Shown in pieces: positions 1 through 17,950 of a DNA stretch of 20,000 bases (its first letter is position 1; every line of letters starts with the position of its first letter). Below the pieces are notes generated by a model. It did no database searches and was not told where the DNA came from. It saw only the letters and a list, made by a program, of their open reading frames with translations. A program made the translations under genes and the position numbers. This DNA is from an uncultured virus (IMG/VR IMGVR_UViG_3300021559_000009) (Duplodnaviria; Heunggongvirae; Uroviricota; Caudoviricetes), in the IMG/VR virus record IMGVR_UViG_3300021559_000009, positions 47,214 through 67,213 of that record; one strand, given 5' to 3'.

Positions 1-226
1 CCTTCTCGGCTGCGTCGCGCTCGGCTTTCAGCGCCTCGGGTAGCTTGACCTTCGCAAGATCGCAAAAGTCCTGGAACCTCATGCGAAAGCCGTAAAGAGC
101 CGCCTCACAGAGCAGCGGAATGATCGTCGCTTGATCGGCAAGCGTCAGCGGAATGTTGACCGTGGACTGCTGAGCGCCGGCACAAGATGGCGCAAGCAGA
201 GCGAAAACAAGTAAAACCTTGCGCAT
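1..226 (-). CDS. Small exported protein, 3' end truncated by window edge (MRKVLLVFALLAPSCAGA/QQSTVNIPLTLADQ...)
   Basis: Translated by hand, not in ORF track. ATG at 226, 8 nt after the previous stop, open to base 1. Basic-hydrophobic-AGA signal peptide. Two Cys in the visible mature part. Confidence 0.75.
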   Translation of the reverse strand, partial: MRKVLLVFALLAPSCAGAQQSTVNIPLTLADQATIIPLLCEAALYGFRMRFQDFCDLAKVKLPEALKAERDAAEK

Positions 227-234
227 TCAGCATC

Positions 235-585
235 TCACTTCGGTGCAATGGGCGTATAGGTGCTAACCGCGTTTTGCTGCAGTATTTGCTGATCGAATCC
301 GCTCACATCAGAAACGATCCCATTTTTTATGGTATCGGCCCAAAAGGTCAGCACCTGCCCCGCCGTGCAAATACCGTTTATGCTGCCATTGCAGCCCTTT
401 TGATACGTCGCGATCATCTTCGCAATTGTGACATTAGGTGGCGTAGCCGTAGCGTCGCTATAAGTTTTTGTGCATCCGGCGCCAGAGCATAGGCCGACAG
501 GTGCTGTTAGCGTGATCGTCAATGTATCGGCGATAGCCGCAAATGAAGTGCAAACCAGCGCCATAGCGATTAAAGTGCGTTTCAT
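235..585 (-). CDS. Exported hypothetical protein, 116 aa (MKRTLIAMALVCTSFAAIA/DTLTITL...), four Cys in mature region
   Basis: Start re-assigned from 648 to the ATG at 585, 4 nt after the upstream stop and downstream of GGGAG. Classic signal peptide ending AIA. Confidence 0.8.
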   Translation of the reverse strand: MKRTLIAMALVCTSFAAIADTLTITLTAPVGLCSGAGCTKTYSDATATPPNVTIAKMIATYQKGCNGSINGICTAGQVLTFWADTIKNGIVSDVSGFDQQILQQNAVSTYTPIAPK

Positions 586-589
586 TTTC

Positions 590-2011
590 TTACGCTCCCT
601 TCCACGAAGTGCCATCATAGAATACTGGACAAACCACAGACCCTCCACCTGTCGGAGCAGCCAGGAATGTGCAGGCGACCGCGTCGGTCACATAAGCCAT
701 CGCGCCAGTTATGCCTGTTGGCAATCCAGCTACCGTATAGCCCTTTAAAACAACCGGGATAGCTGCGGTGATCGCAGTAGCCGTCACCGTTAAGTCAGTT
801 ACGCCGCTGCTCTGAATAGACAACGTACCTAGATTATTCCAGGTCGTACCGTTTGCAATGCCTGCGCCAGAAGTAACATTGGTGCTGCTGTTGACCGTAA
901 AAATAGACTGCCCTGATATGTTTGTATTATTTCCCAATAAAATTGTTGCATAGGCACTAGAAAGAGCATTACTATTTTGAGCATAAATAGCTCCTCCCTG
1001 ACCATTATTGGACAAACTTGATTGTATAGTTGAACTAGCGGTAATGCCATTATTTAACGTAAGTTGCCCATTCCGAGATACGCTAAATTCACTCGTAGTG
1101 CCGGAAGCGCCGCCATAGAGATTAAATAATGTCGTGCTTGCACCTCTTGCCGTATCCGTAATACGAATAGCAACGACATCCGGCGATCCCGTTGTATTCA
1201 ACGTGCCAGAAAGATCAAGCAAAGATGACGCATTCGATCCGGTAAGAGAATATCCGGTCTCCTTGATCGCTATGCTGTTAGCTTGGCCAACAACATTGAT
1301 TCCCTCAGTTCCGAGTGCCCATGCATTGGTAAGCGTTACATTAGTTCCGGCCACCGGCACCTTAATATATGCACCATAGTAATTCGTAAATGTAGCCGCG
1401 CTTGATGCCGCAACCGTGTTGCCGCCAAAAACATCCGTATATGCAGCCGCAACCGTTCCACTCGACGATGTGTCAGTCATTGTCGCTGCAACATTCGCGT
1501 AGCGAATACCGCTCGTAGTCCATGCCGCCGCCGATATGTTGCCGCTCAAGACGAAACTGGCGCCCGCTACAGTAGTCTTTCCATTGAGCGTCGTGGTTCC
1601 TGTCGTACACAAAACATCCGTACCAATGGTGCAGCCGCCAATCGCAACCGAGGTCGCGGTCGCAACCCCGAGCGCAGGCGTAACAAGCGCTGGCGAGGTC
1701 TGCATCACCGCGACCGTACCACTGCCGGTCAGCGTGTATTCTCCAAGCACTCCCGCATTGTCGTAGAGAATGCGCGTCGTCGTCCCGCTCGTGATCGTGC
1801 TAGTTCCAACAGTGAGCCCACCGCCACTGCCACATGCGCCGGAGCCCACAGTGCCGCTGCTGATCGTGAGGCATTGGCCATTTGACCCGCCCGTAACAGG
1901 CGTCGTATTGACGACAATCGTTGTCTGCGCCGAAGCCGTTATGGTCTGCGGGTAGGCAGGCGACAGCGCGAAAAGTAGGCCAAAAAGAACACCAGCCAAG
2001 GTTCGTCGCAT
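590..2011 (-). CDS. Fibre/adhesin-like Gly-Thr-Ser-rich protein with signal peptide, 473 aa
   Basis: Start re-assigned to ATG 2011 (TGATG overlap with the upstream gene): MRRTLAGVLFGLLFALSPAYP/Q. Beta-rich low-charge composition. The C-terminal YTVAGLP...AYVTDA...GGG..V.PVFYDGTSW module resembles ends of phage fibre proteins (recognised by eye). Six Cys in three local pairs. Confidence 0.75.
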   Translation of the reverse strand: MRRTLAGVLFGLLFALSPAYPQTITASAQTTIVVNTTPVTGGSNGQCLTISSGTVGSGACGSGGGLTVGTSTITSGTTTRILYDNAGVLGEYTLTGSGTVAVMQTSPALVTPALGVATATSVAIGGCTIGTDVLCTTGTTTLNGKTTVAGASFVLSGNISAAAWTTSGIRYANVAATMTDTSSSGTVAAAYTDVFGGNTVAASSAATFTNYYGAYIKVPVAGTNVTLTNAWALGTEGINVVGQANSIAIKETGYSLTGSNASSLLDLSGTLNTTGSPDVVAIRITDTARGASTTLFNLYGGASGTTSEFSVSRNGQLTLNNGITASSTIQSSLSNNGQGGAIYAQNSNALSSAYATILLGNNTNISGQSIFTVNSSTNVTSGAGIANGTTWNNLGTLSIQSSGVTDLTVTATAITAAIPVVLKGYTVAGLPTGITGAMAYVTDAVACTFLAAPTGGGSVVCPVFYDGTSWKGA

Positions 2012-3366
2012 CACATCACCATGCCATGAATGAAGCCCGTAGTCGCCAGCGTCAACGTCGCACAAGTCGTGGAAGAAATCGCCGCAGTAATCCCTACCGA
2101 ATAAACAGCAGGCGGTCCGCCAGCATAATTAACCGATCCAAAACCGCCGGCTGAAATCGGAATACACTCGACCATATTGCCAGATGCAACACCTGCCGTA
2201 GTTGATCCATTACTCGGTGCAGAGGTCGAATTGAACACCATCAACCAGCAAGCCGCCGAACATTCAGCGTAGACACTATAAAGATTGCCGGCCGCATTTT
2301 TAAGAACAAGTGATGACGCTGCCGAACCACCAACGACCGGTGTTATGCCAACCAATGCCGAAGATGACGGAGCAGGACCAACAAATGGAACAGCGTTCGC
2401 CGCAGCAGCAGGACCAAGCGTGATAATGCCTGGACTATCCGGCCGGAGATCGACCACAAGCGCCGTATTAGTTGCCGTAACCGGAGCAGTGTTTACTGCA
2501 ACTTGACCTGTCGTAGTTGCAGTACCACCAAAAGCTGCAACATTAACTGGAATATTAGATTGATTACTCGCAACTACAACTGGCGACGAATTCGCCATCG
2601 TCGCTTGACCATTAACGTTCGCATTCGTGACATCGACATTGAGCGCGTTCGATGTCGATGCAATCACGTTGCCCGCGCCGTCTACAACCTGGGATTTTTG
2701 CGAAGCGTTCGTCTGGTTGGCAGAGGTCGCGAGCGTCGAGGTATTAAGATTGGTCCCAGCATTTGCGGTAACGGTAGGCGTATTTGTTATAAAAGCATTG
2801 ACGCCCGGCACAAGAACCGCCCCCGGCGACGTGCCGTAATTCGCCATCGCGCCGAGGGTGCCGCCAGCCCAGGTCGTTATCGCTGACGATCCTCCGCCGC
2901 CTCCGCCACCACCGCCGGAACCCGTAGCGAGTCCCGTTCCGCCCGAAAGAACCACGAGGTTAGAAACCGTCCCCGTCTGGTCGATACAAGCGATATTGGT
3001 GTTGGCCCCGACCGTGTAGGAAAAAAACCCTCCTGGCGCTATTTGGTCTTCATTTGCAACCGCCGTCACACCGAGCGTGCAAGAAACGGCTGTCGTCCCG
3101 GTATTGTAGGCGACAACAACAATCCCGGCCGGCAGCGCAGTAGTTGCTGAAGAGCCCGTGGCGGTCAGCGTCGCGTAGGCGCCCCCTGGCGCGAAGCCGC
3201 CCACTGTGGCGCTAACCGTGGCGGTGACAGGCAAAGGGTTAGACGCCGAGACAGGGGGGCAGTTATTAACCCCTAGCGTCACACACGGACGCACAATAGC
3301 TTGCGCCGACCCCTCGACATAACTTAGTAAAAGCAGGGCGATGGCAAGCCCGAGTTTGCGGAGCAT
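2011..3366 (-). CDS. Fibre/adhesin-like protein with signal peptide and poly-Gly hinge, 451 aa
   Basis: Start re-assigned to ATG 3366 (GAGG upstream, 2 nt after previous stop): MLRKLGLAIALLLLSYVEGSA/Q. Ala/Thr/Gly/Asn-rich, SGGGGGGGGGSS linker, eight Cys. Confidence 0.75.
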   Translation of the reverse strand: MLRKLGLAIALLLLSYVEGSAQAIVRPCVTLGVNNCPPVSASNPLPVTATVSATVGGFAPGGAYATLTATGSSATTALPAGIVVVAYNTGTTAVSCTLGVTAVANEDQIAPGGFFSYTVGANTNIACIDQTGTVSNLVVLSGGTGLATGSGGGGGGGGGSSAITTWAGGTLGAMANYGTSPGAVLVPGVNAFITNTPTVTANAGTNLNTSTLATSANQTNASQKSQVVDGAGNVIASTSNALNVDVTNANVNGQATMANSSPVVVASNQSNIPVNVAAFGGTATTTGQVAVNTAPVTATNTALVVDLRPDSPGIITLGPAAAANAVPFVGPAPSSSALVGITPVVGGSAASSLVLKNAAGNLYSVYAECSAACWLMVFNSTSAPSNGSTTAGVASGNMVECIPISAGGFGSVNYAGGPPAVYSVGITAAISSTTCATLTLATTGFIHGMVM

Positions 3367-3368
3367 AG

Positions 3369-3599
3369 CTATTTTTCCTCTTTTTCCTCGCTCGACTTTG
3401 TTGGAGGAATGAGTTGGGTATTCGCCTGCGAGATCAGTTTTTGCAATAAGGGGTTGACCTCGTTCCACGGCGCCTCGCCGAGTTTTTTTATGATCTGGTT
3501 GGCTTCAGAAAGCGTTATGGTCCACGTAACATTGCGCTCTTGCGCCAAGACTCCCGCGGGCAGTAACAGCAATATCGCGATAAACGTGCGCCACATCAT
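3369..3599 (-). CDS. Small exported helical protein, 76 aa (possible fibre-associated or chaperone-like protein)
   Basis: Start re-assigned to ATG 3599 (or 3596), overlapping the upstream TGA: MMWRTFIAILLLLPAGVLA/QERNVTWTITLSEANQIIKKLGEAPWNEVNPLLQKL. Confidence 0.75.
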   Translation of the reverse strand: MMWRTFIAILLLLPAGVLAQERNVTWTITLSEANQIIKKLGEAPWNEVNPLLQKLISQANTQLIPPTKSSEEKEEK

Positions 3600-3850
3600 C
3601 GCTTTCTCACAATCCAGTTGGCCGCAAGCACGAACAGCGCGTAAATCGAAAGCGAGGTGATCTGGTAGACATTCGGATCGGGCACTGACCACCACAGCCA
3701 CCACGCGCCGAACACGGTGAGTAGACAAAAAAGGTCGGCAGCAGCCACGAGAGCGCGCTGAGAGAGGGCACGCAGCGCCAGCATCACGCCGGCGACGGCC
3801 GCCGGCTCGGCGTCACCCTCTTCAACTATCTCGAACTTTCGCTCGGCCAT
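3596..3850 (-). CDS. Small membrane protein with two predicted TM helices (holin-like topology, function unproven)
   Basis: 84 aa. Hydrophobic segments LVAAADLFCLLTVFGAWWLWW and ITSLSIYALFVLAANWIV, basic C-terminus RKR. GAGGAAG upstream. Confidence 0.7.
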   Translation of the reverse strand: MAERKFEIVEEGDAEPAAVAGVMLALRALSQRALVAAADLFCLLTVFGAWWLWWSVPDPNVYQITSLSIYALFVLAANWIVRKR

Positions 3851-4067
3851 TACCCACTTCCTCTACTTGCGCTGCAAAGTCCTCGAAGGTCGGCGTATCG
3901 TCCCGCTCGGGCGTCTTGCTACGGTTCTTGCTCACTATAGCAAGATACGCCGCCAAAGTCTTGAGCGCATCCACCTTCTCGCCAAAGCGAGGGGCGCCCT
4001 TGCCCGACTTGACCGCCTCGGTTGCGACGTGGGCAGCGAGCGCCCCAATGTCGTCGTCTATGCTCAT
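3822..4067 (-). CDS. Hypothetical protein, 81 aa
   Basis: ATGA overlap with the upstream large gene. Fills the gap in the operon. Confidence 0.7.
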   Translation of the reverse strand: MSIDDDIGALAAHVATEAVKSGKGAPRFGEKVDALKTLAAYLAIVSKNRSKTPERDDTPTFEDFAAQVEEVGNGRAKVRDS

Positions 4068-7000
4068 TCGACGGCCTCCGATGACGGTTCTGACGCCTGT
4101 TCAAGTCCCTCGCCCACCCCCGCCCCAACGGCGCCGCCACGCTGGAGCGCCTTTTGAACCTGTTGGCGCACTATCTCGCGTGCCGCGGGATCGCCAGTCA
4201 ATCCTTTCTGCACCCAGCGCAGGAAAGCGGGCGAAGTCGCGAGCTTACGCACGAGACCGTAGTAGCTGCCAAGCATTGTTCGTCCAGTCGCGTCGGCAAA
4301 AGGGACGATCTTGGTCGGTGCCATTAATGTCCTTGCAATTGCGCCACCGCGTCCCAAGATCGATGCCCACGGGTGCTCCACTTTGGACTGTGCAGACATC
4401 GACTTAGCGGTACCCTGCGTCCCCCTGGTTGACATCAAAAAATCCATCTCTTTGGCAAGCTGCTGCATCTGATCGAGCGTCACTCCGGGGAACATGACCC
4501 GCTGCACCTCGGGCGATATCTTGGCAAGTTCCTTGCCCGGCTCAAGTGTCCCCTGAAGGATGCGTTGCGCGTGTACCTGCCGGAGCATCTCGAACTCGGG
4601 CGAGTCTTCGCCAAACCGCGCGGCGGCGGCGAGGATCAAATCCTCCGAACCTAGAATGCGGTCAACCGCATCAGCGGCGCCCGTCGTGGGCTTGAGCAAG
4701 AACCCGAACGGACCGGCCAGCCGCTTGGCCCGCAAATCAGCCGACTCCTTCTTCGTTGCCGCCTCGATCCCGCCCATCTCGCGCTTGAGCGTGCCCAGCG
4801 GATCCTGTTTAGCGACCGCTTTGGCGGCGTCACCCGCTGCCCGCGCGCGAGCAATTATTTCGGTCACGGTGTCACCAGGCCGCACCGGTATCTCCAGGCG
4901 TCCGCCCAGCATCTCGATGCGCCGCGCCTGCTCGATGAGCTTGGCTGATGCCTCGCGCCCGTGCACCGCCTCCAGCATATTACCGACGCTGCGATGTCGC
5001 TCCAGAACTTGACGGGCGAAAGCACGACCATCGATCTGATCGGGCACTAAAGTCTTGCTGGCATCTAACATGGCCTGCACGTCGGCCGCCTTGACGCCTG
5101 CCCACAAGTTGGGACCCACCAGACGCGCGACCGTCCTGGTGAGGTCCGAGCGTCCCTCCCTGACGAGCGTGTCGAACAGGTTCTTGGGATCGGCCGGCAT
5201 GCCTGACTCAAGCCCGCTTACCACCGCCTGGATATGCTTGTCGGTCAGCGGCCTGATGGCATCGCGGTAGAAATCATCCGCTGCCCGCAGCGCGCGCGCC
5301 GCCTCTTGCAGCTCCGGCACCGCGCCGGGATCGTTGAGAATCTCATCCACCCGGTTGGCAAAAAACTTGAAGGTGCCCTGCTTCACATCGGGCGTGAGAT
5401 CGAGGTGATTGTAATTGGCGCGCAGCACGGAGCGCAGATTGTGCAGCTGCCCGAACGTAGGCGTCGCAGGCTCCTTCTCCCACTCGCCGGTCGGCACGCC
5501 ATGCTCATCTAGCTTCTGGACGCCCGCGAGGTCGCGAATCTGCTTGACGATCGAGGGGTAGCGGTTCTCGAACCCTTCCGGCAGCTCGGCCAGGAACTGC
5601 GCGGCGCGCTCGGGGAGCCCCGCCATGTCGGGCAAGTGCCCACCCGCAAGCGCATCAGCCTCGTTGTACATCTTGCGCGCACGCGCCTGGATACCTTGCT
5701 TTACTGCCTTGAGCTTCTCACCCACCATCTGCCACAGATCGCCGGAATTACCTCCTGCCTTGGACACCTTAACGGCACCGTCAATGTCCTGTTGGATGTC
5801 CCGAAACCCTGCATCAATCAGGTTTTCAGCGGCTTTTCGCGCCGCAACTTCGGCCTGCCGCAACCCCTCAACGCGCGCGCTGTGCTCGCCCGCCTGACCC
5901 ACGACCCTGCCGAGCGCAGCGCCTACCTCGCCCTCCCGCCTCGCCGCGTGCTCCGCCGCGAGACGCGCGTCCTGCTCAGCAGCGACCGCTTGCGCACGAA
6001 CGAGGATCGCCGTACCGGCGCGCTCCGTGGACACCGCTTCGGTCGGACTGGAAATCGAGCCCGCAGGTCTATCGCCAAACTGCTCTAGGATGTCACCCGC
6101 TTTTTTCTCGTAGTGACGAGTAGCCGATTGTAGAAGCGGTTTTTCAGTGTGAAAAGCGGGATCAAACACCTCGTGCACGTTCTGAAGATGCGGCGCTCCC
6201 TTGGCCCAACCCGACAGCGGAGCCATTGCACCAGGCTCAGTAATGCCTAACATGCGCAATAAAGCGTTCGAAGACTCGTGTTCACCTCGCTCGCCACCTT
6301 GCTCGCCTAACGTAATAGCCGTTTGCAGCCCTTCGGGATCGACGCCAAGAAATTCGGCCGCCACGCCAGGCAGTCCCAACTTGGCGCCACGCATCCGGGG
6401 CAGCACGGAAGCAACACCGCGCCCCATCGCAGTCCCGGCGCCTGCCATCACGCCCGAAGCGCCCAGCTCCATTGCCTCCTCGCCCGCGGAACGATCGTAG
6501 ACCCCCGCGAGCGCCATGATCGCGTCGTTAAACCCCTGGCCCACCGCGCCGCCCGCTGCCGCGCCACCGACCGCCCCTGGCAGGCCGCCCGCGAGACCGC
6601 CGCCGATCTCACCCGCAACCGCGCCTACGGTCGGAAAAACGCCGCCCGTCGCCGCGGCGCCGGCTGCCTTCCAGTTCTCAGCGAGCGACTCGTGCTCTTC
6701 CGACGGCCCTCTGGGACGACGGCGCGTGCCGTTCCGCTCCTGGACGTAGAGACCCTTCGGATCGTTCCTGATCTCAGCGCCGGGATAACCGCGCTCCAAA
6801 GCGCGACGCTGTTCCCGCTCGTTGACCGCCATGTTGAACAATGAATGAGTCGTGAAATCCACGCTCTCATAGCGCGGCTTGGTACGCAGATTGCCGCGTG
6901 GGTCAAGGAAGTCGGCGCCCTCGGGCACTGCTTCGTAAGAATCTTCATCCGCGACCGACCACGGCTTGGTTCGGGTATTGCCCTGCGGATCAAGGAAGTC

Positions 7001-7171
7001 GGTACCAGGAGAAAGAGCGTCGTACTCCTGCTGGGACGCTACTTTCGGAGGTGGCGCCTTGTAGGCAATGTCGGGCCGGTCCCGCATCGGTGCGCGGGGC
7101 TCGGCTGCAAGCCCGCGCTCCTTGAGAAGAGAGCGCTCGGCATCGAGCTGCGAGGAATACGCGTCACTCAT
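4064..7171 (-). CDS. Large internal virion / DNA ejection protein (P22 gp16 / T7 gp16 positional analogue), 1035 aa
   Basis: Last of three Ala-rich helical proteins after the GNAT-like gene. Gly/Ala-rich hydrophobic segment GGLAGGLPGAVGGAAAGGAVGQG. Coiled-coil-like stretches. Confidence 0.7.
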   Translation of the reverse strand: MSDAYSSQLDAERSLLKERGLAAEPRAPMRDRPDIAYKAPPPKVASQQEYDALSPGTDFLDPQGNTRTKPWSVADEDSYEAVPEGADFLDPRGNLRTKPRYESVDFTTHSLFNMAVNEREQRRALERGYPGAEIRNDPKGLYVQERNGTRRRPRGPSEEHESLAENWKAAGAAATGGVFPTVGAVAGEIGGGLAGGLPGAVGGAAAGGAVGQGFNDAIMALAGVYDRSAGEEAMELGASGVMAGAGTAMGRGVASVLPRMRGAKLGLPGVAAEFLGVDPEGLQTAITLGEQGGERGEHESSNALLRMLGITEPGAMAPLSGWAKGAPHLQNVHEVFDPAFHTEKPLLQSATRHYEKKAGDILEQFGDRPAGSISSPTEAVSTERAGTAILVRAQAVAAEQDARLAAEHAARREGEVGAALGRVVGQAGEHSARVEGLRQAEVAARKAAENLIDAGFRDIQQDIDGAVKVSKAGGNSGDLWQMVGEKLKAVKQGIQARARKMYNEADALAGGHLPDMAGLPERAAQFLAELPEGFENRYPSIVKQIRDLAGVQKLDEHGVPTGEWEKEPATPTFGQLHNLRSVLRANYNHLDLTPDVKQGTFKFFANRVDEILNDPGAVPELQEAARALRAADDFYRDAIRPLTDKHIQAVVSGLESGMPADPKNLFDTLVREGRSDLTRTVARLVGPNLWAGVKAADVQAMLDASKTLVPDQIDGRAFARQVLERHRSVGNMLEAVHGREASAKLIEQARRIEMLGGRLEIPVRPGDTVTEIIARARAAGDAAKAVAKQDPLGTLKREMGGIEAATKKESADLRAKRLAGPFGFLLKPTTGAADAVDRILGSEDLILAAAARFGEDSPEFEMLRQVHAQRILQGTLEPGKELAKISPEVQRVMFPGVTLDQMQQLAKEMDFLMSTRGTQGTAKSMSAQSKVEHPWASILGRGGAIARTLMAPTKIVPFADATGRTMLGSYYGLVRKLATSPAFLRWVQKGLTGDPAAREIVRQQVQKALQRGGAVGAGVGEGLEQASEPSSEAVE
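6875..7042 (-). repeat. Two tandem copies of a ~29-aa motif V.....Y.A...G.DFLDP.GN.RTKP
   Basis: VASQQEYDALSPGTDFLDPQGNTRTKP versus VADEDSYEAVPEGADFLDPRGNLRTKP. Nucleotide similarity is also visible (tcaaggaagtcgg twice). Confidence 0.9.
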
Positions 7172-10100
7172 CGCTGGCAGTCCGCGAGGCGCGCTTGCGC
7201 TTCGGCTTCAAGCCGGGAGGAAGCTCCTCGTCCTCATCCCTCACCAGCTCGGGCAGCGTTTGCTTCGGCGAAGCAGCTTTCTTGCGGGGCGTGCGAGCGG
7301 ACGCGACAAGCCCTTTGGAACGCGCGGTGGGCGGTACCGTGCGCCCCGGCACCGGTATCTTGGTCGAGGTGACTGCCGGCGGCAGGCCCTCCAGGATGCT
7401 TGACGGCAGGCGGCTGCCGTATTCCGACGGGTTGGTCAGGTTCTCCCAACCCTGCTTCTGAGCCTCGGCGCCGCGCGGCAGCACCGTCGCATCATAAGCG
7501 TTGGGAACCACAAAGGAAGCGTCGAATGGCAACGTGGCAGCCGCCGCGATAGTCACCGGGCTGTGCCCCTTGTCAGCCAGGGTTTTGAGAATCTCGGCGT
7601 GCTCCTTGTTGTACTCCTTGAGCGTGTTGACGAGAGGCGTCGCCGCGGTCTTGTCACCAGCTGCTAGCGCCTTTTCGGCTTTTTCGGCAGTCTCTTCCCA
7701 CTTTTTTATGTACTTGTTGGCAGCGGACGCCTGCCGCAGCTTCACGGCGTAGGGGATCGCTGCAGAGAGCGAGGTCCCAATCCACGGGAGCATAGAGTTG
7801 AGAACGGGATAACGGTCGCGGAAGGCCGCGGTGCGCGCCTTGTATTCCGCCGCTTCCTTCTCATCGGCCTGGTGCTTGCGCTCAGCCTTGTCAGCCCAAA
7901 ACTTAGTACGCTGCTCAGCATTAAAACCACGGTAAAGAGCACGCTCGTCCTCCGGCAGGCTCGAAACCTCGGCCTCAAGCTTGGTTCTGGCCTCCTCGTC
8001 GTGCTTAGCACGTTCTTCCTTCTCGCGCCCCTCCCTCTCTTGCTCGACTTGACGCTCGCGCGTTTCCTTCTCGGTCTGGGCGCGACGCTCGCCCGCCTCC
8101 TTGGCGAACGACTGGAGCAAAGCCGGCCGATCGGCGCGCGGGCTTCGGCGCAAAATTTCCTTCTGCTCCGCCGTCAACCCCTCGTCGCCCGCCTCAGCCC
8201 TTGATGCTGCGAGCGTCGTGCCCGCCCCTGCACCGGCGCCGAGCAACGTCGTCATGAGCTGCCGCACCATCGGCCGTGCAAGCGGCATCCCGGCACGCAC
8301 TGCGGCGCCGCCAACCGGTATGGCCGCCGACATAGCGTGGGCGCCTGCCTCCGATGGATTGTCTGCCTGAATAGATTCCTGGGCGCTCAGAGCCGCGCCC
8401 ACGGGCGTGAGATCAAGCGCCGAGATGCCGCTGCCGCCGACACCAGTCGTACCAATGCCGGACGACCCAATCGTCTCGCGTGCCATCTGACGCGTGTGGT
8501 AAGACGCGCTATCGGGCAATATAAAGTTGGCAAGCCGATCACGCCACGTCGGCTCGTAGGCGCGCAATTCCGCATTCTGCGAGGAAATGGGCTGCGAAAA
8601 AAACCCGCCTGCCTCGCCGGCACGTTCTGACCGGGCGGGAGGAAGCTCCTCCGCCTGGGCCGCCCCTACTGGATTGAAAAACGACGCGATTTTACCAAAA
8701 GAAGACTCGTTGGAAGACCTCTTATCCGCCGGCGTCTTGATGGGTGCCGCGTCCCACGGCATCTTCTCGTCGCCAGTCCCGCCAGCAGGAACTGTTTCAC
8801 GTGGAGCACGAGGAGCGCCCGCGTCGCGAGGATCGAACACGCCCTCATAGCGACGCGTTGATTGCTCGCGCATCGTCCTAAACAGTTCCTGAAGGCGCAG
8901 GAGGCGCTTGGCGGTGTTCGCTGTGGTGTCGCCAGCGCTGAGACCAGGGATGATCCGTGCGATCTCGGCTTCTTCGGCCGCCAGCGGGCGTCCTTTCGAT
9001 TCGTTGAGAAGCCGTGGACCCCACTCGCGCAACTCGGAAATGTAGCTCGCGAACTGCGCCCGATCGGTCGCGTTCGACCCGAACACGTTGCCCACCACTT
9101 CCGCAGGACGCGTGATCCGCCCGCCGAGGCCCGCAAGCGCGTTGTGCTTCTTGAGCAGCGCCTCGACCTTATCAATCGTTTGATCCGACAACTGGAGTCG
9201 CTCGATCTGTCCCGCGAGATCGTCCTTGGTCTTGCCCGATATTGCCGCACCCTCAGTCTTAAGCTGCCGCGACACGTCTTCACGAATGCGGGCGATGTCC
9301 TCCTGGCTCTTGCCTTCCAGCTCACCGCTCTGGCGTTTCTCCTCCATGATCTTGCGTACCGCGTCAGCGCGCTGGCGCTCGTCGGTGAGGTTGACATTGC
9401 CCCCGCTGCCCGCTCCACCAAGATACGGTCGCGTCAGCGCCTCGGTGATCTCCTTGTTCTTGGCGATCAGCTCATCGGCCGTCGGCAATCGCCCCTTGCC
9501 CTTGATGGTTTCAGCCGCGAACTGGCCCAGCGCCTGCGCGCGCGGGTCGCCCGGCTTCATGTGGAGAAAAAACGCGTTGTTGAACGCGTCGAGCAGCGCC
9601 TGCCCCCTCTGAGTCGGGTCCTGAATGTGCTCCTCAATCGTCTTGGCGTCGCGCTCGAACACCAGCTTCTGGAGTCCGCGCCCCGTCATCTCCTGCACGG
9701 CCTGCCCGGTCTTGTTGATCGCGTCGGCGCGCTTCTCCATCGCCTCGTACAGCTCGGGGAACATGCCGTGCTCGATGAGCACCATCTCCTTGCTCATCCC
9801 GAACTGAGCTGCCACCATGCGCGCTTTTGCCGCACCCGCCGCCATATCCGTGTCCATCAGACGCAACGCATCGCCCAGGCGCTCGTGCTCAAGCTGATGG
9901 CGCTTGAAAGTGAGGTCGGTGTTCTCCTTCCACGCGTCATGAGCGCGGTTATACGCCTCCTCGTCGCCAGCCCTGACTGCGTTCATAGCGGCAGCCGAGG
10001 CGTTAAGGGCGTTCTCCATCGGGGCGCGCGTGAACGCGCTCGCGAGCATCCCGAACACGCTGCCAAGCGAGCCGAACGCCTGAATCGGATCGGTCTGGTA

Positions 10101-10412
10101 CTTCTTGCTCTCAGCGCCCGCGTCCCACTTCTGAAACTCGCCGGGCCCAACACCCTCCGCTTCGTACTGATGCTCGATCCGCGCGCGATCACGTTCCATG
10201 CGCGCCTCGGTCTGCGCATCCACGTCGAGCAAGTGCTTGAACGTGCCGCGCTGAGCCTGCGTGTAATCTTCCTTCAATCCCGGCGGCAAACCGTCGTCGT
10301 CAGAAACTGGTAAAGCTCCGCCCGTACCACCAAGCGGGATGCGCGCACCCGTCATGTTTTGCGGTTGCTTGCCATCCAAAAGGTCGTTGCCAACAAAGGC
10401 AGAATCAGTCAT
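7164..10412 (-). CDS. Large internal virion / DNA ejection protein, 1082 aa
   Basis: Position, size, helical charged composition and several hydrophobic Gly/Ala segments. Overlaps the next gene by 8 nt. Confidence 0.7.
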   Translation of the reverse strand: MTDSAFVGNDLLDGKQPQNMTGARIPLGGTGGALPVSDDDGLPPGLKEDYTQAQRGTFKHLLDVDAQTEARMERDRARIEHQYEAEGVGPGEFQKWDAGAESKKYQTDPIQAFGSLGSVFGMLASAFTRAPMENALNASAAAMNAVRAGDEEAYNRAHDAWKENTDLTFKRHQLEHERLGDALRLMDTDMAAGAAKARMVAAQFGMSKEMVLIEHGMFPELYEAMEKRADAINKTGQAVQEMTGRGLQKLVFERDAKTIEEHIQDPTQRGQALLDAFNNAFFLHMKPGDPRAQALGQFAAETIKGKGRLPTADELIAKNKEITEALTRPYLGGAGSGGNVNLTDERQRADAVRKIMEEKRQSGELEGKSQEDIARIREDVSRQLKTEGAAISGKTKDDLAGQIERLQLSDQTIDKVEALLKKHNALAGLGGRITRPAEVVGNVFGSNATDRAQFASYISELREWGPRLLNESKGRPLAAEEAEIARIIPGLSAGDTTANTAKRLLRLQELFRTMREQSTRRYEGVFDPRDAGAPRAPRETVPAGGTGDEKMPWDAAPIKTPADKRSSNESSFGKIASFFNPVGAAQAEELPPARSERAGEAGGFFSQPISSQNAELRAYEPTWRDRLANFILPDSASYHTRQMARETIGSSGIGTTGVGGSGISALDLTPVGAALSAQESIQADNPSEAGAHAMSAAIPVGGAAVRAGMPLARPMVRQLMTTLLGAGAGAGTTLAASRAEAGDEGLTAEQKEILRRSPRADRPALLQSFAKEAGERRAQTEKETRERQVEQEREGREKEERAKHDEEARTKLEAEVSSLPEDERALYRGFNAEQRTKFWADKAERKHQADEKEAAEYKARTAAFRDRYPVLNSMLPWIGTSLSAAIPYAVKLRQASAANKYIKKWEETAEKAEKALAAGDKTAATPLVNTLKEYNKEHAEILKTLADKGHSPVTIAAAATLPFDASFVVPNAYDATVLPRGAEAQKQGWENLTNPSEYGSRLPSSILEGLPPAVTSTKIPVPGRTVPPTARSKGLVASARTPRKKAASPKQTLPELVRDEDEELPPGLKPKRKRASRTASDE

Positions 10413-12010: not shown

Positions 12011-12346
12011 TCACAGATTAAGAAGCGTCCTCGCCCTGTCGTGGTTGTCGCCGTTGTCATTCATCCAGCGTATCACGTCCTGCGGGTCGCGCCAATCGAT
12101 CGAGAGCAAGTCGTAGCCCTGGATGCCCAGCGCGTTGTTCATCTGGTCGTGCATCGCCTGGTGACGATAAAGCCACGAGGAGTCGTCGCGCCGGAACGGG
12201 TCAAGCACGTACTCAACGACCCTGATTCCCAGCGTCTGCAAGACCACCCGGTCAATGTCGCGATGGTCGGCGGCGTGCGCAAAGGACCAGCGAGTAAAAT
12301 CGTCCTCCGTCCACCCTTCCTCGGTGAGCTGGTCAATGTTAGGCAT
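12011..12346 (-). CDS. Hypothetical His/Trp/Asp-rich helical protein, 111 aa
   Basis: TGATG coupling to the nozzle gene. Motifs HAADH, HQAMH, NGDNH. Confidence 0.8.
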   Translation of the reverse strand: MPNIDQLTEEGWTEDDFTRWSFAHAADHRDIDRVVLQTLGIRVVEYVLDPFRRDDSSWLYRHQAMHDQMNNALGIQGYDLLSIDWRDPQDVIRWMNDNGDNHDRARTLLNL

Positions 12347-14646
12347 CAGCCACGATACCCCACCACGTCCTCGCCCAGCATAATCGACACCAACGACGCA
12401 TCCGCCGCATTAGTCTTCCACGTCATCCCGGTCAGCTCGCCCACCTGCCCCACCGCTTGCGGCGGCACCACAAAGTAGCCAGTCGCGGCCGGACCGGCAA
12501 TCGTGTAGGTCGCCGAGTTAGCTGGCGCCTGCTGGTCCACGATCGCAGTCAAATTAGGGGAAACAACGCTATCGTACTTGGCAAGACCCCACAGGCGCGT
12601 CGCGGCTTTCTTGAACAAGAAACCACCGGGCGCCTCCCACAATTTGGTCTGCACCGTCTTCTGGAAGCCCGACGAGGGGACCGCGAACAGCGGCTTGATC
12701 GTGATGCCGTCGGTCCCGTAGGTCGTGATCTGCGACTGGATTTCCTGATGCTTCACGTAGGTCAGCGTCATACTTTGCTGCGACGCGAACCACTCCTTCT
12801 CGTGGTAAAGAAACAGCTTGTTTACGGTCGCGCCCGACACCGGATCCACGATCGCCGCCAGCACCACAATCGCCTTCTTGGAACCGAAGATCGTCGCCTG
12901 CGCAGCCGACGGCTGCATGCCAAAGTTGTAGCCGTTCGCCAGCGTCGCAACCGTGTTCCACACGCCATCCAGCTCGTGGCTGATCTTCTCGACGTTGCCG
13001 CCACGAATAACGTGCACGCCAAAGGCGTTCGCAAACAGCACGTCGCGCCCAAAACTTTCTACCGACGCCGGGAACGGCGTGCCGGTCTGCGTGTCGGCAT
13101 TGAGGTTCGAGAAGGTCGTGGTCGGCGGCGTCCCCGTCGTCTGCACACCGCTGATGTAATTGACCGATGAGTCGCCGATCGCCCACAAGTAAGCGTTCGC
13201 CTGGATGAACTTGGAGTAATTGACGCGCAAGACCGAGTCGGCCGACGTGGTGTTGCCCCCACCATCCGAGGTCGCGAAGTCAGTGAGTGAACCGGGAGCG
13301 CTCCAGTAATAGGTCGCCCCATTCGCGACCCACGCATGCCCCTGGTAGATCTCGACCGTCGTCCCCTGGATCGCAAAAGGCATGAGCGAGATAGTTGCGG
13401 TTGCCTGGACCGCTGCGTCATTTATCGCAAGCGTAGGAGGCGTATTGGTACCATAAAGACCGGCCCCGACAATAGTTACGCCTGTAATGACGCCGCCGGA
13501 GATCACCGGCTGCAACGTCGCCTGCGCAACCGGCGAGCCACCGCCCGACGCCGTGATCTTGGTCGAGGGCGAGTAGCCCGTACCAGTCGGCGTCCCGGTG
13601 ACGCTACTGACATAAAATCCTGCACCGTTATCCGTGACCGTCACAGTTGGTGGCGTAGAAGACGTGTATTCGTTATGTCCACTAAAACCGTTAGGAACAG
13701 GAACCGCACCTGTTATAATACCTCCCACTATCGTCAACTGTACAGCAGGAACGCTTCCTGGGTTATTAAAAGGATTTCCGCCAGAGAGAGAAGCCGTGGT
13801 ATTACTGCTGTATCCACTCCCGCCGTTGTTCACCGTAATGCTACTAACAAAGAAAATACCGCCGCCACGGGCTGTCATAACAGCCGTCAACACGGCGCCA
13901 GACCCACCCGCTTGATGACTTAGCACCGCCGTGAGAGACGCTCCAGTGCCAGTCGAAGCTCCTCCAGTCAGCGTGAGCGTCGGCGTATCGCCAGCAATAT
14001 ATCCAGTTCCCGGATTGAGCACCGTGATGCCGGTAACCTGCCCATTGCTGACAGTCGCCGCGAATGTCGCCCCCGTACCATGACCGCCCGAAATGACGAC
14101 TGCGGGCGGCGTCTGATAAGCCGCTCCAGCATTAGTCACCACAACCAGCGGCGATAACCCGCCCGCCCCAAACGTCGTCGTGCCATCCCAAAGCCAATAT
14201 CCGTTCGTCTGGTTGGAAACGGTAATGAGGTATTGCTGCCCCCACTGCGTGATCCCCTGGTTGAGTACCGACGGATTGATAATCGAACCGGCCGTTAATA
14301 TCGTCGTGACCGCAAGCGTCGTCGTGTTGACCACGACCACCGAACCGTCGGACATAAACACAACGCAGTAGGGCGTCACTCCGATGTTGAAAAAATCGAA
14401 GAATACGATCGTCAGGGAATCGGTACGCGTGAAGATCGCACTGCCCACATCCCACAGAGTACGAAGTTGCCGCGGCCCGACCCGGATAAAACCGTCTATC
14501 CAGTAGCACTTCTCGTCCGGCACGCCGGTCCGGCCGCCCGACGTATCAAGTCCCATCCACTGGTCGTGGATAAGAGGTTGCGGTCCCGCGGGGAGATACG
14601 GGTTAGCCTGCTCTTGGGCTGCTTGCTCGGGCTGTTCGAGAGACAT
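12346..14646 (-). CDS. Tail nozzle / DNA stabilisation-like protein (P22 gp10 / T7 gp12 analogue) with inserted Gly/Thr-rich repeat region, 766 aa
   Basis: Follows the adaptor genes. Beta-propeller-like motifs (YYWSAPGSLTDF, LWAIGDSSVNYISG, VEKISHELDGVW). Central GxGY repeat insert. Confidence 0.65.
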   Translation of the reverse strand: MSLEQPEQAAQEQANPYLPAGPQPLIHDQWMGLDTSGGRTGVPDEKCYWIDGFIRVGPRQLRTLWDVGSAIFTRTDSLTIVFFDFFNIGVTPYCVVFMSDGSVVVVNTTTLAVTTILTAGSIINPSVLNQGITQWGQQYLITVSNQTNGYWLWDGTTTFGAGGLSPLVVVTNAGAAYQTPPAVVISGGHGTGATFAATVSNGQVTGITVLNPGTGYIAGDTPTLTLTGGASTGTGASLTAVLSHQAGGSGAVLTAVMTARGGGIFFVSSITVNNGGSGYSSNTTASLSGGNPFNNPGSVPAVQLTIVGGIITGAVPVPNGFSGHNEYTSSTPPTVTVTDNGAGFYVSSVTGTPTGTGYSPSTKITASGGGSPVAQATLQPVISGGVITGVTIVGAGLYGTNTPPTLAINDAAVQATATISLMPFAIQGTTVEIYQGHAWVANGATYYWSAPGSLTDFATSDGGGNTTSADSVLRVNYSKFIQANAYLWAIGDSSVNYISGVQTTGTPPTTTFSNLNADTQTGTPFPASVESFGRDVLFANAFGVHVIRGGNVEKISHELDGVWNTVATLANGYNFGMQPSAAQATIFGSKKAIVVLAAIVDPVSGATVNKLFLYHEKEWFASQQSMTLTYVKHQEIQSQITTYGTDGITIKPLFAVPSSGFQKTVQTKLWEAPGGFLFKKAATRLWGLAKYDSVVSPNLTAIVDQQAPANSATYTIAGPAATGYFVVPPQAVGQVGELTGMTWKTNAADASLVSIMLGEDVVGYRG

Positions 14647-14835
14647 TTAGTAAGTCCAAGTCCAATGCACTTTCGAACGCCTGACCATCCAATTTCCAAC
14701 TAAATACATTACTCGCCGCCAACGTGGATACGAATACCAGCGAGCCAAAGACTCTTGATTAAGCCGAACGTTCAAATCGCGAAACCGCTGAAACATAGGG
14801 TCTTGCCCCTTTGCGTGCTCGCCAAAAGAACCCAT
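14647..14835 (-). CDS. Small basic Trp/Arg-rich hypothetical protein, 62 aa
   Basis: Start re-assigned to ATG 14835 (GGGAGA upstream, 1 nt after previous TAA). Its TAA abuts the next ATG. Confidence 0.55.
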   Translation of the reverse strand: MGSFGEHAKGQDPMFQRFRDLNVRLNQESLARWYSYPRWRRVMYLVGNWMVRRSKVHWTWTY

Positions 14836-14836
14836 A

Positions 14837-15766
14837 TTAGATTCTCCCGTATCGATTGGGCGCGCGCCCAACCCGCGCATAGTTGCTGTAGCGCAGCAAA
14901 TGCATGTCAAACAGTTCGAGGTAGAACTTAGCAGCATTGTAATTTTGAAGGTCGAGGTAGCACAAATGTGCAGTGAAATACTTCACTGCCTCGCTCCAAG
15001 GATCAGGGAGAATCTCGACGCTCAAGTCGGTCTTCAGGTCTTGCGGCAAGCACAGACAATCCATCTCGTACTGATACGCTTGCGACGGCAACGGATAGAC
15101 AAACAAGCTTCCCGCCGTCCCCTGACCAAATTGAGCAGCGAACGCTGGCACATACTGGTATTGAAACGGGTACTGGCGAATCATCGCCTGATAGTCGGAG
15201 AACGCCGCAACGTAGAGCGTGTAGCGATAATTCGCGTAAATCACCGACACCGTGCGCGCATAATAGATCGCCCCCACACCGGGGAACGCGCTGAGATCGA
15301 TGTCAGCGTAATTGTAAACCTCCAATCCCTGACTAAACTGCGTAGTCGCCGAGAGCACCGGCGTCGCCGCCGCCCCAGTTCCCCCGCCGCCCGAGAACGA
15401 TATCTGCGGCTGGAAGTAGCCATAGCCGCCGTAGTTGATGTCCACCGTCGAGACCTTCCCGCCGCTGATCAGAGCCTGCGCAGTCGCCTGGCTGCCGTTA
15501 GGAAACGCCCCCATGCCCGACGGAAAATCCGGCGCCGTGATCGTGACCGTAGGGGGACTGGTGTAACCCGACCCGCCGGCCGTCACGCTCGCCGACATGA
15601 TCGAGCCCGAAATCGGCGTGAGCACGCGCACGCACTGCGCGCGCATCGCCACCTCGCGGCGCGCGGTGTTGACGTGGGCGATCATATCAAGCGGGTTGAT
15701 CGACTCTTGACGTGCGTCGCGCAGGAGGCGAGTGGTGTCCTTTAAATACTGATTCAGCGACGCCAT
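14837..15766 (-). CDS. Head-tail adaptor-like protein, paralog 2, with GxGY module insertion, 309 aa
   Basis: N-terminal helical LNQYL...VNTARREVA and C-terminal LPDPWSEAVKYFTAHLCY patterns resemble adaptor/ring proteins. Aligns by eye with the upstream gene. Confidence 0.65.
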   Translation of the reverse strand: MASLNQYLKDTTRLLRDARQESINPLDMIAHVNTARREVAMRAQCVRVLTPISGSIMSASVTAGGSGYTSPPTVTITAPDFPSGMGAFPNGSQATAQALISGGKVSTVDINYGGYGYFQPQISFSGGGGTGAAATPVLSATTQFSQGLEVYNYADIDLSAFPGVGAIYYARTVSVIYANYRYTLYVAAFSDYQAMIRQYPFQYQYVPAFAAQFGQGTAGSLFVYPLPSQAYQYEMDCLCLPQDLKTDLSVEILPDPWSEAVKYFTAHLCYLDLQNYNAAKFYLELFDMHLLRYSNYARVGRAPNRYGRI

Positions 15767-16515
15767 CAGCCCGTCGCCTTCTGCAGACCGAGCTTGCTCG
15801 TAAGCGTCGGATCAAGCGCTTGTTCGTACTGAGAGCGCAGCACCGATGGGTTCGCAAATTGTCGCGCGCGCCCCATGAACGTCTTGTACTGCCCGAATAA
15901 ACGCTCGGCATCCGCAATCCGCGCATTCGTCTGCGCCGACATGAGCGCAAGATACGCAGCAAAGAACGGTGCAGCGTCAGTCCATAAAAATGGAATTGCC
16001 TCCACGTCGCCGTCGGCCGCTAGCTTCTGCGGGTAGCAAACGCAATCGCAGCTGAGCACATAGACCAGGTCGGGGGGCGGGTCGAGGTAGAAGCTCCCCG
16101 ACGCGCCGCTCCCCGTGCTCTGCCCGCTTGAACCCTGAGCGAATTGACTCCACTCGACCGGCGAACCCGCCTGCGGCTCCGGGTTGTTCAGCGAGAACAG
16201 CTCAAACCACGGCCACGCTCGCGACTCAACGCGCTGAAAACCGTCGCCGACCGCGTAGCGCACCGACCGGACGTGAATCACGCCCTGCACGCCCGTCGTC
16301 GCCGCGACCCCGACGTTGATGGACGAGAAGTTGTAGGCGCGCTGCCCGATAACGGTCGGAATCGTGCCAATGGCGCGGATACATTCACCCTCACCGGCGA
16401 GCTGCCCGCGCGCCGTATTGATCCACCCCGTGAGGTCAGACGTAGCGTAGAGTGGCGATGGCGCTGCCGGGTTCTGGAGAAGCTGCTGGGTTTGAAGGAG
16501 ATATTGATTGAGCAC
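15766..16515 (-). CDS. Head-tail adaptor-like protein, paralog 1, 249 aa
   Basis: GTG start with GGGAGG SD. Motifs LNQYL...WINTARGQLA, YLDPPPDLVY and IPFLWTDAAPFFAAYLA. Confidence 0.65.
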   Translation of the reverse strand: MLNQYLLQTQQLLQNPAAPSPLYATSDLTGWINTARGQLAGEGECIRAIGTIPTVIGQRAYNFSSINVGVAATTGVQGVIHVRSVRYAVGDGFQRVESRAWPWFELFSLNNPEPQAGSPVEWSQFAQGSSGQSTGSGASGSFYLDPPPDLVYVLSCDCVCYPQKLAADGDVEAIPFLWTDAAPFFAAYLALMSAQTNARIADAERLFGQYKTFMGRARQFANPSVLRSQYEQALDPTLTSKLGLQKATG

Positions 16516-16534
16516 CGGCAGTCCTCCCGCCGGT
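16514..16534 (-). promoter_or_regulatory. 8-bp hairpin covering the SD and GTG start of adaptor paralog 1
   Basis: Minus strand: tg[ACCGGCGG gagga CTGCCGGT]g. The 5' arm starts at the A of the upstream TGA, and the 3' arm ends in the GT of the GTG start. Confidence 0.6.
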
Positions 16535-16758
16535 CACACACGCCTCAAAACCGGGTTGGCAGGTGTCGATCGTCCAGCGTCCAGCACATAATACGCCTGC
16601 GATCCATCGGGGTTCAAGCACAGCAGCGGCGTATGAAGCTGCTGCGCCCGCGCCATGGCCCCCGGCGTCGCGCCCGAGTCGGGCAGCGTATGCACTTTTT
16701 GCGCAAACTTCTGTCCGATACCGGCGCCCGTGACCGCAAGGCTATAGGTCTCAGCCAC
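16534..16758 (-). CDS. Small hypothetical virion-associated protein, 74 aa
   Basis: GTG start 1 nt after the upstream TAA. Fills the operon gap. Confidence 0.7.
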   Translation of the reverse strand: MAETYSLAVTGAGIGQKFAQKVHTLPDSGATPGAMARAQQLHTPLLCLNPDGSQAYYVLDAGRSTPANPVLRRV

Positions 16759-16759
16759 G

Positions 16760-17950
16760 TTACGCCGCCGGCTGGATGATGCACACGTCGGGCTTGGAAC
16801 CCATCGTCAACGAGATGGTGCTGGTGCCCACGATGGTGCCGGTCGTGGCTGTGACCGGATCGGCAATGAAAAGCGGTGACGGCGCCGAGAAGAACAGTCC
16901 GCTATCGTAGATCGTCCCAACCTGCGCCGCAATCGTGCCGGCACCGCCAACCGTTAGCGCGATCTGCGCGGCACGCGGCCGCGCGCGAAGGAAGAGAAAA
17001 TCCTCGCTGTTGGTGAACGTGCCCTGCGGCGGGTAGCCGCCGACGGTCGTCACATATCCCAACGTGCCGGCATCTCCCGAAATCGTCGAGCCCCCGATCA
17101 CCGACGCCGTGACCACGGTCTGAAGCATGACCGGATTGACGCTGCCCGCCGTACCGACGCCCGACACCACCAGCGAGATGTTTGCCGGGTTCGCAATCGG
17201 GTTGCCGGGGTTGGTGCAAAGCAGGCCGGTAAGCGAGCCCGACGCGCCGACCGTGAACGTGATGGTGCCGAGAGTGATGCCCGTCACGAGATTCGGATCG
17301 GTCGGGTTCGGCAGACACACCGCGTTGAACGTCGTACCAGTGTAGCCGGCACCCGGATTGGTAAAGGTGAAACCGCTGACGGTCCCGCTGGAGATCGTCG
17401 CGTAACCCGACGCCGCGATGCCACCGACGCCGTTCGGGTTCGATCCCGCCGGCGGCGGCGAAGGAATCATCACGATCGGCGGCACACCATAACCAGCACC
17501 CGCATTAGCGGTCACGATCGTCGCCGTGTTCATTGACAACTGGCCACCAACAATCGGCTGCCACGTCGAACCGCCACCGCCGGTCACCGCGACCGTGGTC
17601 GATGCTTGCACGTAGCCCGAACCGGGCGCAATGATCACGCCCCACACCGGACAGCCAAGCCGGTTGGAGATGCGCAGGTTGAAGCCGTCACTCTTGACGT
17701 AATAGAGCCCGTCATTCCACGCCGCGGCGGCAGCCATCACCCACACGCCGGTGACGGGGTCGAGGAACTCCAATGTGAGGTACGAGCCAAGCGATATCGC
17801 CCACGTACCCGCAGGGATCGGGATCTGGTCGCCGGCATTCAGCGTGATCTTGTTGCTCGGCGCATCCAGCGGAGCGTTTTGCAGCTCGCTGGGATACAAA
17901 TTCTGCGGCAACTGAAAGCCAAGGCCGGGACCTGACAGGGGAGCGGACAC
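16760..17950 (-). CDS. Capsid-associated (decoration/head-fibre-like) protein with Gly/Thr/Pro-rich GxGY modules, 396 aa
   Basis: Immediately downstream of the capsid gene. TAAGGAGG SD overlaps the capsid stop. Beta-rich composition. Confidence 0.6.
   Translation of the reverse strand: MSAPLSGPGLGFQLPQNLYPSELQNAPLDAPSNKITLNAGDQIPIPAGTWAISLGSYLTLEFLDPVTGVWVMAAAAAWNDGLYYVKSDGFNLRISNRLGCPVWGVIIAPGSGYVQASTTVAVTGGGGSTWQPIVGGQLSMNTATIVTANAGAGYGVPPIVMIPSPPPAGSNPNGVGGIAASGYATISSGTVSGFTFTNPGAGYTGTTFNAVCLPNPTDPNLVTGITLGTITFTVGASGSLTGLLCTNPGNPIANPANISLVVSGVGTAGSVNPVMLQTVVTASVIGGSTISGDAGTLGYVTTVGGYPPQGTFTNSEDFLFLRARPRAAQIALTVGGAGTIAAQVGTIYDSGLFFSAPSPLFIADPVTATTGTIVGTSTISLTMGSKPDVCIIQPAA

Follow-up and report, generated by a model that had tools for sequence, protein, structure and literature searches.

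Known systems and the present locus

Assembly of tailed phages is taken to be wholly cytoplasmic, and to our knowledge the exported proteins of phages are either lysis or lysogeny factors (T4 RI, for example) or inovirus coat proteins. Filamentous phage pIII and pVIII are leader-bearing virion proteins that stay membrane-anchored and are assembled during extrusion. The P22 tailspike and T4 Hoc and Soc are cytoplasmic, late add-on parts that dock on finished particles in vitro, and prophage morons such as Eib (trimeric autotransporters), Lom and Bor are exported, lie near fibre genes, use a beta-barrel or a lipid as anchor and function in lysogens. Here we describe a block of late genes with predicted Sec-type leaders in an uncultured virus of the Caudoviricetes (IMG/VR record IMGVR_UViG_3300021559_000009). 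The window, that is, the whole stretch of 20,000 nucleotides (nt) analysed, is C1:47214-67213 of this single 67,213-nt record, C1 denoting positions in the record itself. We think it likely that fibres and head spikes from this block are exported, oxidised in the periplasm and docked on virions at lysis.

The proposed appendages share a leader and a virion role with pIII and pVIII but differ from them in membrane anchoring and extrusion assembly; with the P22 tailspike, Hoc and Soc they share late docking, although those proteins are cytoplasmic. Like Eib, Lom and Bor they are phage-encoded, predicted to be exported and near fibres, but no such anchor was found here. S74 and pectate-lyase modules are common to podovirus tail fibres and spikes and to the fibres of the source family; the former are cytoplasmic and leaderless, whereas the proteins in question bear leaders. 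Full-text literature searches, with subscription journals outside their coverage, brought up no title or abstract reporting tailed-phage virion appendages with Sec leaders. The MAT fibres of Bdellovibrio, as described, combine a signal peptide, a conserved N-terminal region and a mosaic phage-like fibre, with S74 in some, all of which is also seen here; MATs, whose conserved N-terminal domain is beta-rich and ~130 amino acids long, are encoded on the bacterial chromosome and exposed at the cell surface (PMC10769870), whereas the leader proteins described here are the products of phage late genes.

A block of leader-bearing late genes

The genes concerned are as follows (window positions unless marked C1):

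1..3599, minus strand: the five leader genes of the window, late genes
3369..3599, minus strand: P0001, 76 amino acids (leader 3543-3599), short Cys-free protein
2011..3366, minus strand: P0002, 451 amino acids (leader 3304-3366, predicted cut GSA/Q), N-terminal jelly roll, Gly/Thr stalk, C-terminal jelly roll, 8 Cys
590..2011, minus strand: P0003, 473 amino acids, leader, mosaic fibre shaft, Mtd_N-like tip, 6 Cys
235..585, minus strand: P0004, 116 amino acids (leader 529-585), small, 4 mature Cys
226-<1 (1..226 in the window), minus strand: P0005, 86 amino acids in the genome (leader 173-226), running off the window to C1:47179, 2 mature Cys
C1:47182-44737: leader genes of 303 and 507 amino acids, continuing the run outside the window
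C1:40109-38718: eighth leader-bearing gene, a 463-amino-acid fibre with the QSG motif, before the endolysin
3596..3850, minus strand: 84-amino-acid membrane protein, conserved, usually marking the start of the leader block; holin-like by a weak phrog_2877 match only (E 0.026)

In the preliminary description of the window, five consecutive fibre-position genes were said to carry Sec-type signal peptides once their starts were moved to coupled ATGs. The N-termini quoted there exist in all five genes, and a start picker blind to signal peptides (using coupling, Shine-Dalgarno sequence and ATG) arrived at the same coupled starts, with junction gaps of -1, +2, -1, +4 and +8 nt; for P0001 it used the second of two adjacent ATGs. 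Leaders were scored by a von Heijne-type rule of our own, not by SignalP: a basic n-region, an uncharged 10-residue core with a Kyte-Doolittle (KD) value of at least 1.9, and small residues at -3/-1. By this rule-based test a leader is predicted on each gene (5/5), as against 0/2000 internal windows of each of the five proteins and 37/1914 possible starts genome-wide. Outside the block, 2/88 genes pass: 1/67 on the minus strand (the membrane-anchored CHAP endolysin) and 1/21 on the plus strand. When any start within 40 codons is allowed, the figure for other minus-strand genes is 2/67. The blind start picker and these controls rule out a start-site artefact as the origin of the leaders.

Other parts of the preliminary description need revision. 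The window does hold five leader genes in a row, but the true run is seven genes, two of them beyond its edge. Only two of the five are fibre-sized, the remaining three being small, presumably accessory proteins. The N-terminus given for P0003 is present with its AYP/Q site, but ASA/Q (residue 28) may be cut instead. Between the run and the 463-residue fibre lie three leaderless genes, encoding an 815-residue spike with a pectate-lyase fold and proteins of 366 and 162 residues; in all, 8/12 called genes of the block pass, and one of the 12 is probably a false call. The leader genes are coupled into the late operon without an excess of promoter or terminator sites (3 promoter-like sites in window positions 1-4600 vs 3.1 by chance, and 7 terminator-like sites vs 5.2).

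The eight leader-bearing proteins of this genome show neither a lipobox nor a further transmembrane segment after the leader, and no leader protein gave a Pfam match to a C-terminal beta-barrel anchor or outer-membrane translocator. Autotransporter or lipoprotein identity is thereby ruled out (no lipobox, no later hydrophobic segment, no Pfam barrel match).

The 815-residue spike (C1:44737-42290), situated within the leader block, lacks both a leader and an obvious docking domain, yet contains 14 Cys. Its junction to the upstream gene varies among relatives (-1 vs +12 nt), which makes a conserved frameshift fusion unlikely.

Leaders in related loci

The membrane gene was found in 23/33 loci examined, and leaders are conserved downstream of it: 58/81 genes pass the rule, compared with 2/158 upstream. 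The downstream count covers the first four genes after the membrane gene in 21 relatives, two near-identical relatives having been dropped. Both passing upstream genes belong to L037, whose block is upstream of the marker; L047 is the one locus without any passing gene.

Searches with single proteins gave a similar distribution. A leader precedes 107 of the best 120 of 137 P0002 homologues and 50/119 P0003 homologues, the other P0003 homologues being fragments and many typical leaderless fibre starts. The P0002-family search yielded 26 loci (21 non-redundant), in which the matched gene passes in 20/21 cases, the next two genes in 33/37 and upstream genes in 13/163. These loci have varied contexts (GP7-type and other capsid genes, P22-like portals, a Baseplate_J myovirus and a siphovirus tail like that of a gene transfer agent [GTA]), and the block often stands directly after capsid genes.

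Conservation of the membrane gene directly before the block, apart from the lysis cassette and with only a weak holin match, would suit a different order of events, in which particles or tails, anchored to the inner membrane by, for instance, the 84-residue protein, meet the exported fibres in the periplasm or in vesicles before lysis. We consider this very unlikely: the block also occurs in lineages without the membrane gene (1/21 loci matched it), the genome has a normal endolysin, and we know of no route that moves a capsid across an intact inner membrane.

In some relatives the appendage block is wholly or mostly leaderless (L028:3719-9970, L039:3632-9967 and L047:9995-14640).

Cysteine parity

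A bias toward even Cys numbers is an established mark of periplasmic disulfide formation, and Cys parity is independent of the leader-rule inputs except for the cut site. The mature forms of the eight leader proteins contain 0, 8, 6, 4, 2, 6, 16 and 10 Cys; in P0004 and P0005, the odd Cys sits within the leader. Even:odd counts are 48:5 for leader-bearing block proteins vs 26:50 for the rest, a bias that persists with fixed cut points and at 4 or more Cys (41:3, 39:3 and 33:6). P0003 homologues divide in the same manner (45:4 with a leader vs 20:28 for the others), and their Cys content triples with a leader, 0.86% vs 0.29%. Counts for P0002 homologues are 105:2, for the P0002-family loci 43:6 and for a further homologue set 116:10.

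Individual pairs also behave as units: both C127 and C135 of P0003 are present in 14 homologues, one alone in 0 and neither in 37, and for C96 and C127 of P0002 the corresponding numbers are 74, 1 and 2. Pairs gained or lost together, along with even counts, fit periplasmic disulfide folding. On these two lines of sequence evidence, leaders conserved in homologues and Cys parity, the predicted export of these late-operon proteins, as proposed in the preliminary description, is well supported.

Virion docking domains behind leaders

Two natural comparisons bear on the destination of the exported proteins. The first is the QSG motif (~25 residues), a presumed docking element without a match in the PDB, which starts both the leaderless 162-residue mini-fibre and the leader-bearing 463-residue fibre of the same genome. 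Clustering at 50% identity places it in 1,084 clusters, and among the best 150, 128 have a leader; predicted leaders are mostly 15-24 residues long, with small residues at -3/-1. Leaderless QSG proteins end in Gp53-like_C (E 1.6e-10) or in TSP_Ig plus a Gp49 lyase, the leader-bearing ones include S74 and pectate-lyase-like proteins, and most members have no Pfam match. In the group of relatives whose capsids are 70–83% identical to that of the source phage, the slot between adaptor and nozzle holds a leader-bearing QSG protein in L042, L046 and L049 and a leaderless one in L043 and L045, with L049 having both. A tree of 27 QSG proteins needs four changes of leader label, of which strongly supported branches force only one, so that it does not settle the direction or number of leader gains.

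A second common leaderless fibre motif, a start of the DSTInAL...GxE type, was also seen by eye right behind leaders in L013, L044, L071 and P0059.

The second comparison, which is the stronger, comes from another podovirus group. Here a fibre gene after the ejection proteins opens with a domain that matches residues 5-128 of Carin-1 Dpo31/Dpo36 (E 2.5e-9); this N-terminal domain also matches fibre genes in 84 phage records. The D1 domain of Dpo31 is described as attaching the protein to the tail (PMC13317679). The same docking domain, known from Dpo31/Dpo36 (PDB 8CK1/28LX) and HTVC010P-like fibres, stands at the mature N-terminus in 4/5 orthologues (L081-L083 and L085), with a leader directly before it; in Carin-1, the match begins at residue 5 and leaves no room for a leader. 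The fifth orthologue is leaderless and has a Met at the cut-site position. Two genomes have completeness ratings of 99% and 100%, and neither contains a match to the domain other than the leader-bearing gene. If the sole tail-docking fibre is exported, it must be fitted after export, unless the leader is unused.

An unused or uncleaved leader could act as a hydrophobic docking peptide or membrane tether on a protein that folds in the cytoplasm and forms its disulfides after release. Such an arrangement has parallels in the RcGTA head fibre, which docks by a hydrophobic N-terminal peptide (PMC7296036), and in the disulfides of the cytoplasmically assembled crAss001 tails (PMC10172136), and our leaders are called by our own rule only. 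Yet the leaders of the Carin-1-type orthologues are 31% identical while the mature parts are 76% identical, and sequence conservation sets in sharply at the cut site, the very position at which the leaderless orthologue begins. The length and -3/-1 residues of the leaders and the threefold Cys content that accompanies them likewise speak against retention, and we regard this explanation as highly improbable.

The preliminary description had left it undecided whether the exported proteins join virions or decorate the host surface. Joining the virion is favoured by the lack of a lipobox or transmembrane segment after the leader and by the fact that, in two complete genomes, the sole gene with a tail-docking domain also has a leader; judged from these sequences, the exported proteins probably reach the virion. 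They might instead act on the infected or lysogenic cell, as surface or vesicle adhesins or by receptor masking, or serve after lysis as free depolymerases, lectins or decoys. Some block proteins do match lipases, esterases and pectin lyases, two relatives are proviruses, and some relatives have a leader-bearing gene with an ADMPVKAP motif that we take, unconfirmed by Pfam, to encode an outer-membrane protein. The MAT design, too, is a leader plus a conserved N-terminal domain and a mosaic fibre with S74, as described (PMC10769870); the jelly-roll match to the C-terminal domain of MAT Bd2133 is generic only (Z 6.5). A role away from the virion nevertheless appears unlikely: besides the missing anchor or translocator signal and the leader on the sole tail-docking gene, the genes are coupled in the late operon with no sign of a promoter of their own, and capsid genes often directly precede the block.

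Resemblance to the RcGTA head spike

As described, the RcGTA head spike has a jelly-roll base with peptide-docked fibres (PMC7296036), namely an Rcc01079 base pentamer and the Rcc01080 fibre. In the P0002-family loci, too, a jelly-roll protein comes first and lectin-like proteins come after it, these having Gly linkers and short N-terminal peptides that recur, and the genes often adjoin those of the capsid; by eye, the mature N-peptides of the downstream proteins include xxHG, LLGAG or MTGAG, and FAIFQ. By a purely mechanistic analogy, the post-capsid position, jelly-roll fold and recurring N-peptides suggest an RcGTA-like head spike, with a jelly-roll base plus peptide-docked fibres. P0002 resembles a head-spike base more than it does a tail fibre, and from its model it is the probable base or hub. 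No sequence or fold match to Rcc01079 was found among the matches listed for P0002, which, unlike Rcc01079, combines a leader and paired Cys of the disulfide type with a stalk and a further jelly roll.

Proposed assembly route

The sequences show the leaders and their conservation, the pairing of Cys, the virion-type domains and the absence of anchors; actual export and cleavage, oligomer state, docking, timing, benefit and host we infer. In the route that we favour, the capsid, adaptor rings, nozzle and ejection proteins would be assembled in the cytoplasm, while the appendages (tail fibres or spikes, head spikes and small helpers), made from the same late operon, would be sent through Sec. 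Signal peptidase I would remove the leaders, and the proteins would fold with disulfides in the periplasm and wait there as soluble subassemblies. Once the inner membrane is broken at lysis, these could dock on finished particles by their mature N-termini. Late docking is feasible because P22 tailspikes and capsid decorations attach in vitro. The benefit would be disulfide-stabilised appendages and access to the host pool of secreted lectin and hydrolase domains.

Several points count against this route. The Carin-1-type case belongs to a different phage group, and the source genome lacks that domain; no known virion-docking domain was found in the five window proteins by Pfam, PHROG or Carin-1-type comparison. 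Just 12 of the 91 leader-bearing proteins scanned match PHROG tail or head families; another 12 match only unknown, other or moron families, and 67 have no match. Of the 91, 3 match moron-class families. For P0003 the model has low confidence (pLDDT 62) and only weak fold matches came up (E ≥0.8, Z ≤4.2), and no cultured relatives were found for P0002 or the QSG fibre. The loci share kinship, so that P values overstate the strength of the counts. When P0003 homologues have at least 4 Cys, the two groups cannot be told apart by parity (34:0 vs 10:1). The 14 Cys of the leaderless spike, the disulfides of crAss001 tails, the two proviruses and the use of our own leader rule, all mentioned above, belong on the same side.

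We lean, with rather less assurance, toward a general form of this route across unrelated podo-, sipho- and myovirus-type soil phages: appendages, the primary tail fibre among them, would be secreted, folded in the periplasm and snapped on at lysis, and a leader gained or dropped before one docking domain would let host-range genes switch compartment. Leader-bearing exported appendages would amount to an assembly route for which we found no description in tailed phages, the existence of the route itself being, in our judgement, likely. If so, phage infectivity would depend on the Sec, signal peptidase and Dsb pathways of the host, bacteria would have a new point of defence, and maturation would be tied to lysis. 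Secreted lectins and hydrolases rich in disulfides could be taken up by phages as receptor-binding domains. In soil viromes, many genes now called "secreted hypothetical" or "moron" would be re-annotated as virion parts, and there would be a modular means of decorating finished capsids with disulfide-bonded proteins.

The five window proteins

Pfam and PHROG gave no informative match for any of the five. PDB sequence searches with A5, A6 and A9 gave nothing real, the A9 matches being Gly-linker artefacts. Pairwise comparison of P0001, P0002 and the membrane gene with the genes of MW202825 and RSK1 found nothing significant; domain-cut profiles recovered P0001 and the C-terminal domain of P0002.

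P0001 may be an accessory protein or chaperone. Its 6 homologues have near-identical mature parts and diverged leaders, and MW202825 has a leaderless homologue of 50 residues, encoded downstream of its tail fibre (E 1.3e-7 against a set of 324 proteins). The jelly rolls of P0002 are predicted at high confidence, with generic PDB fold matches (best Z 8.4) and 62 BFVD matches at E ≤0.001, mostly to small uncharacterised phage proteins. The P0002 C-terminal domain, in a domain-cut profile, matches the leaderless RSK1 ORF22 (E 3.3e-11), and the N-terminal domain matches weakly (E 0.019 and 0.26).

The P0003 monomer model is poor except over its last 45 residues. Fold matches, of phage-fibre type though weak, are to HylP (E 0.8), the Mtd N-terminal domain (Z 4.2, root-mean-square deviation 1.7 over 39 residues) and tailspikes; ESM Atlas feature scores, all <0.9, serve as leads only (Mtd_N). 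Its homologues carry the fibre domains S74, phiTE_241_C and Gly_rich_2. The shaft repeat also occurs in a leaderless 551-residue gene product of Bradyrhizobium phage ppBjS10J-1 (E 1.2e-15), and the tip in a leaderless nozzle-adjacent fibre of L047. P0004, a possible fibre accessory, weakly matches (24%, E 0.003 in a single comparison) a leaderless, Cys-free 90-residue protein of L041, whose gene has a leaderless fibre-like gene nearby. In the cultured phages with which single modules are shared (ppBjS10J-1, RSK1, phiM12 and Mwe-JY13), the versions are leaderless. By sequence comparison, then, the block proteins are phage late-region modules that exist in leader-bearing and predicted cytoplasmic forms.

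Genome features

The record ends in a 705-nt terminal repeat with 12 mismatches, indicating a genome of ~66.5 kb that is probably complete. The gene layout is podovirus-like. Upstream of the membrane gene the window contains:

4064..10412, minus strand: two large Cys-free, leaderless proteins, ejection-protein-like from position and size; used as negative control
12346..19015, minus strand: leaderless core virion genes (nozzle-like, two adaptor paralogues, decoration-like, major capsid protein)

The nozzle, decoration and ejection labels are putative, assigned by genome position; Pfam and PHROG gave no informative family match for the 4064..10412 proteins. The major capsid protein matches phrog_9953 (major head, E 2.4e-8), and the adaptor, with two paralogues in the genome, matches SU10_adaptor (E 5.1e-7). 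The second adaptor and the nozzle-like gene each contain an inserted Gly/Thr-rich beta-repeat of ~90 residues (window 12346-17950), with a weak counterpart in the decoration-like gene; this region has PHROG baseplate and virion matches. Relatives L042 and L049 have three adaptor paralogues, reminiscent of crassvirus ring proteins.

No cultured relative turned up; the capsid and terminase match only two Manatee Spring genomes and Hydrogenobaculum phage 1 (about 32–35%). A GTDB scan matched only two small contigs of metagenome-assembled genomes, and no host call is made from these. Leader-bearing genes with an AD(M/L)PxKAP motif follow the lysis genes in four relatives (L007:18951-19757, L020:18002-18820, L034:13824-14597 and L031:13977-14657), where superinfection exclusion is possible. 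The motif presumably marks an alphaproteobacterial outer-membrane protein, although Pfam gave no match for the ADMPVKAP proteins; a Hyphomicrobiales host would be a guess from it.

The rest of the genome encodes DNA polymerase A, a primase-polymerase, a helicase, a resolvase, a DnaJ protein, sugar-modifying enzymes and the membrane-anchored CHAP endolysin. The endolysin (C1:38711-37533) has N-terminal transmembrane segments, a Pro-rich linker and a CHAP domain, and is followed by a small separate gene for a peptidoglycan-binding domain (C1:37055-36732). A coiled-coil open reading frame on the plus strand (C1:40178-40687) breaks the late operon from the opposite strand. The minus strand also carries the DnaJ-domain gene and the lone resolvase (C1:17577-16894 and 11049-10330). 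In the primase region, C1:21411-21584 has a weak tblastn match (E 4e-4), probably spurious, to the N-terminus of the L047 short fibre. C1:15704-8851 contains a reversibly-glycosylated-polypeptide-like gene, an NAD-dependent epimerase, a TPR protein and probable glycosyltransferases; a similar cluster follows the leader block in L071, and virion or DNA glycosylation is possible.

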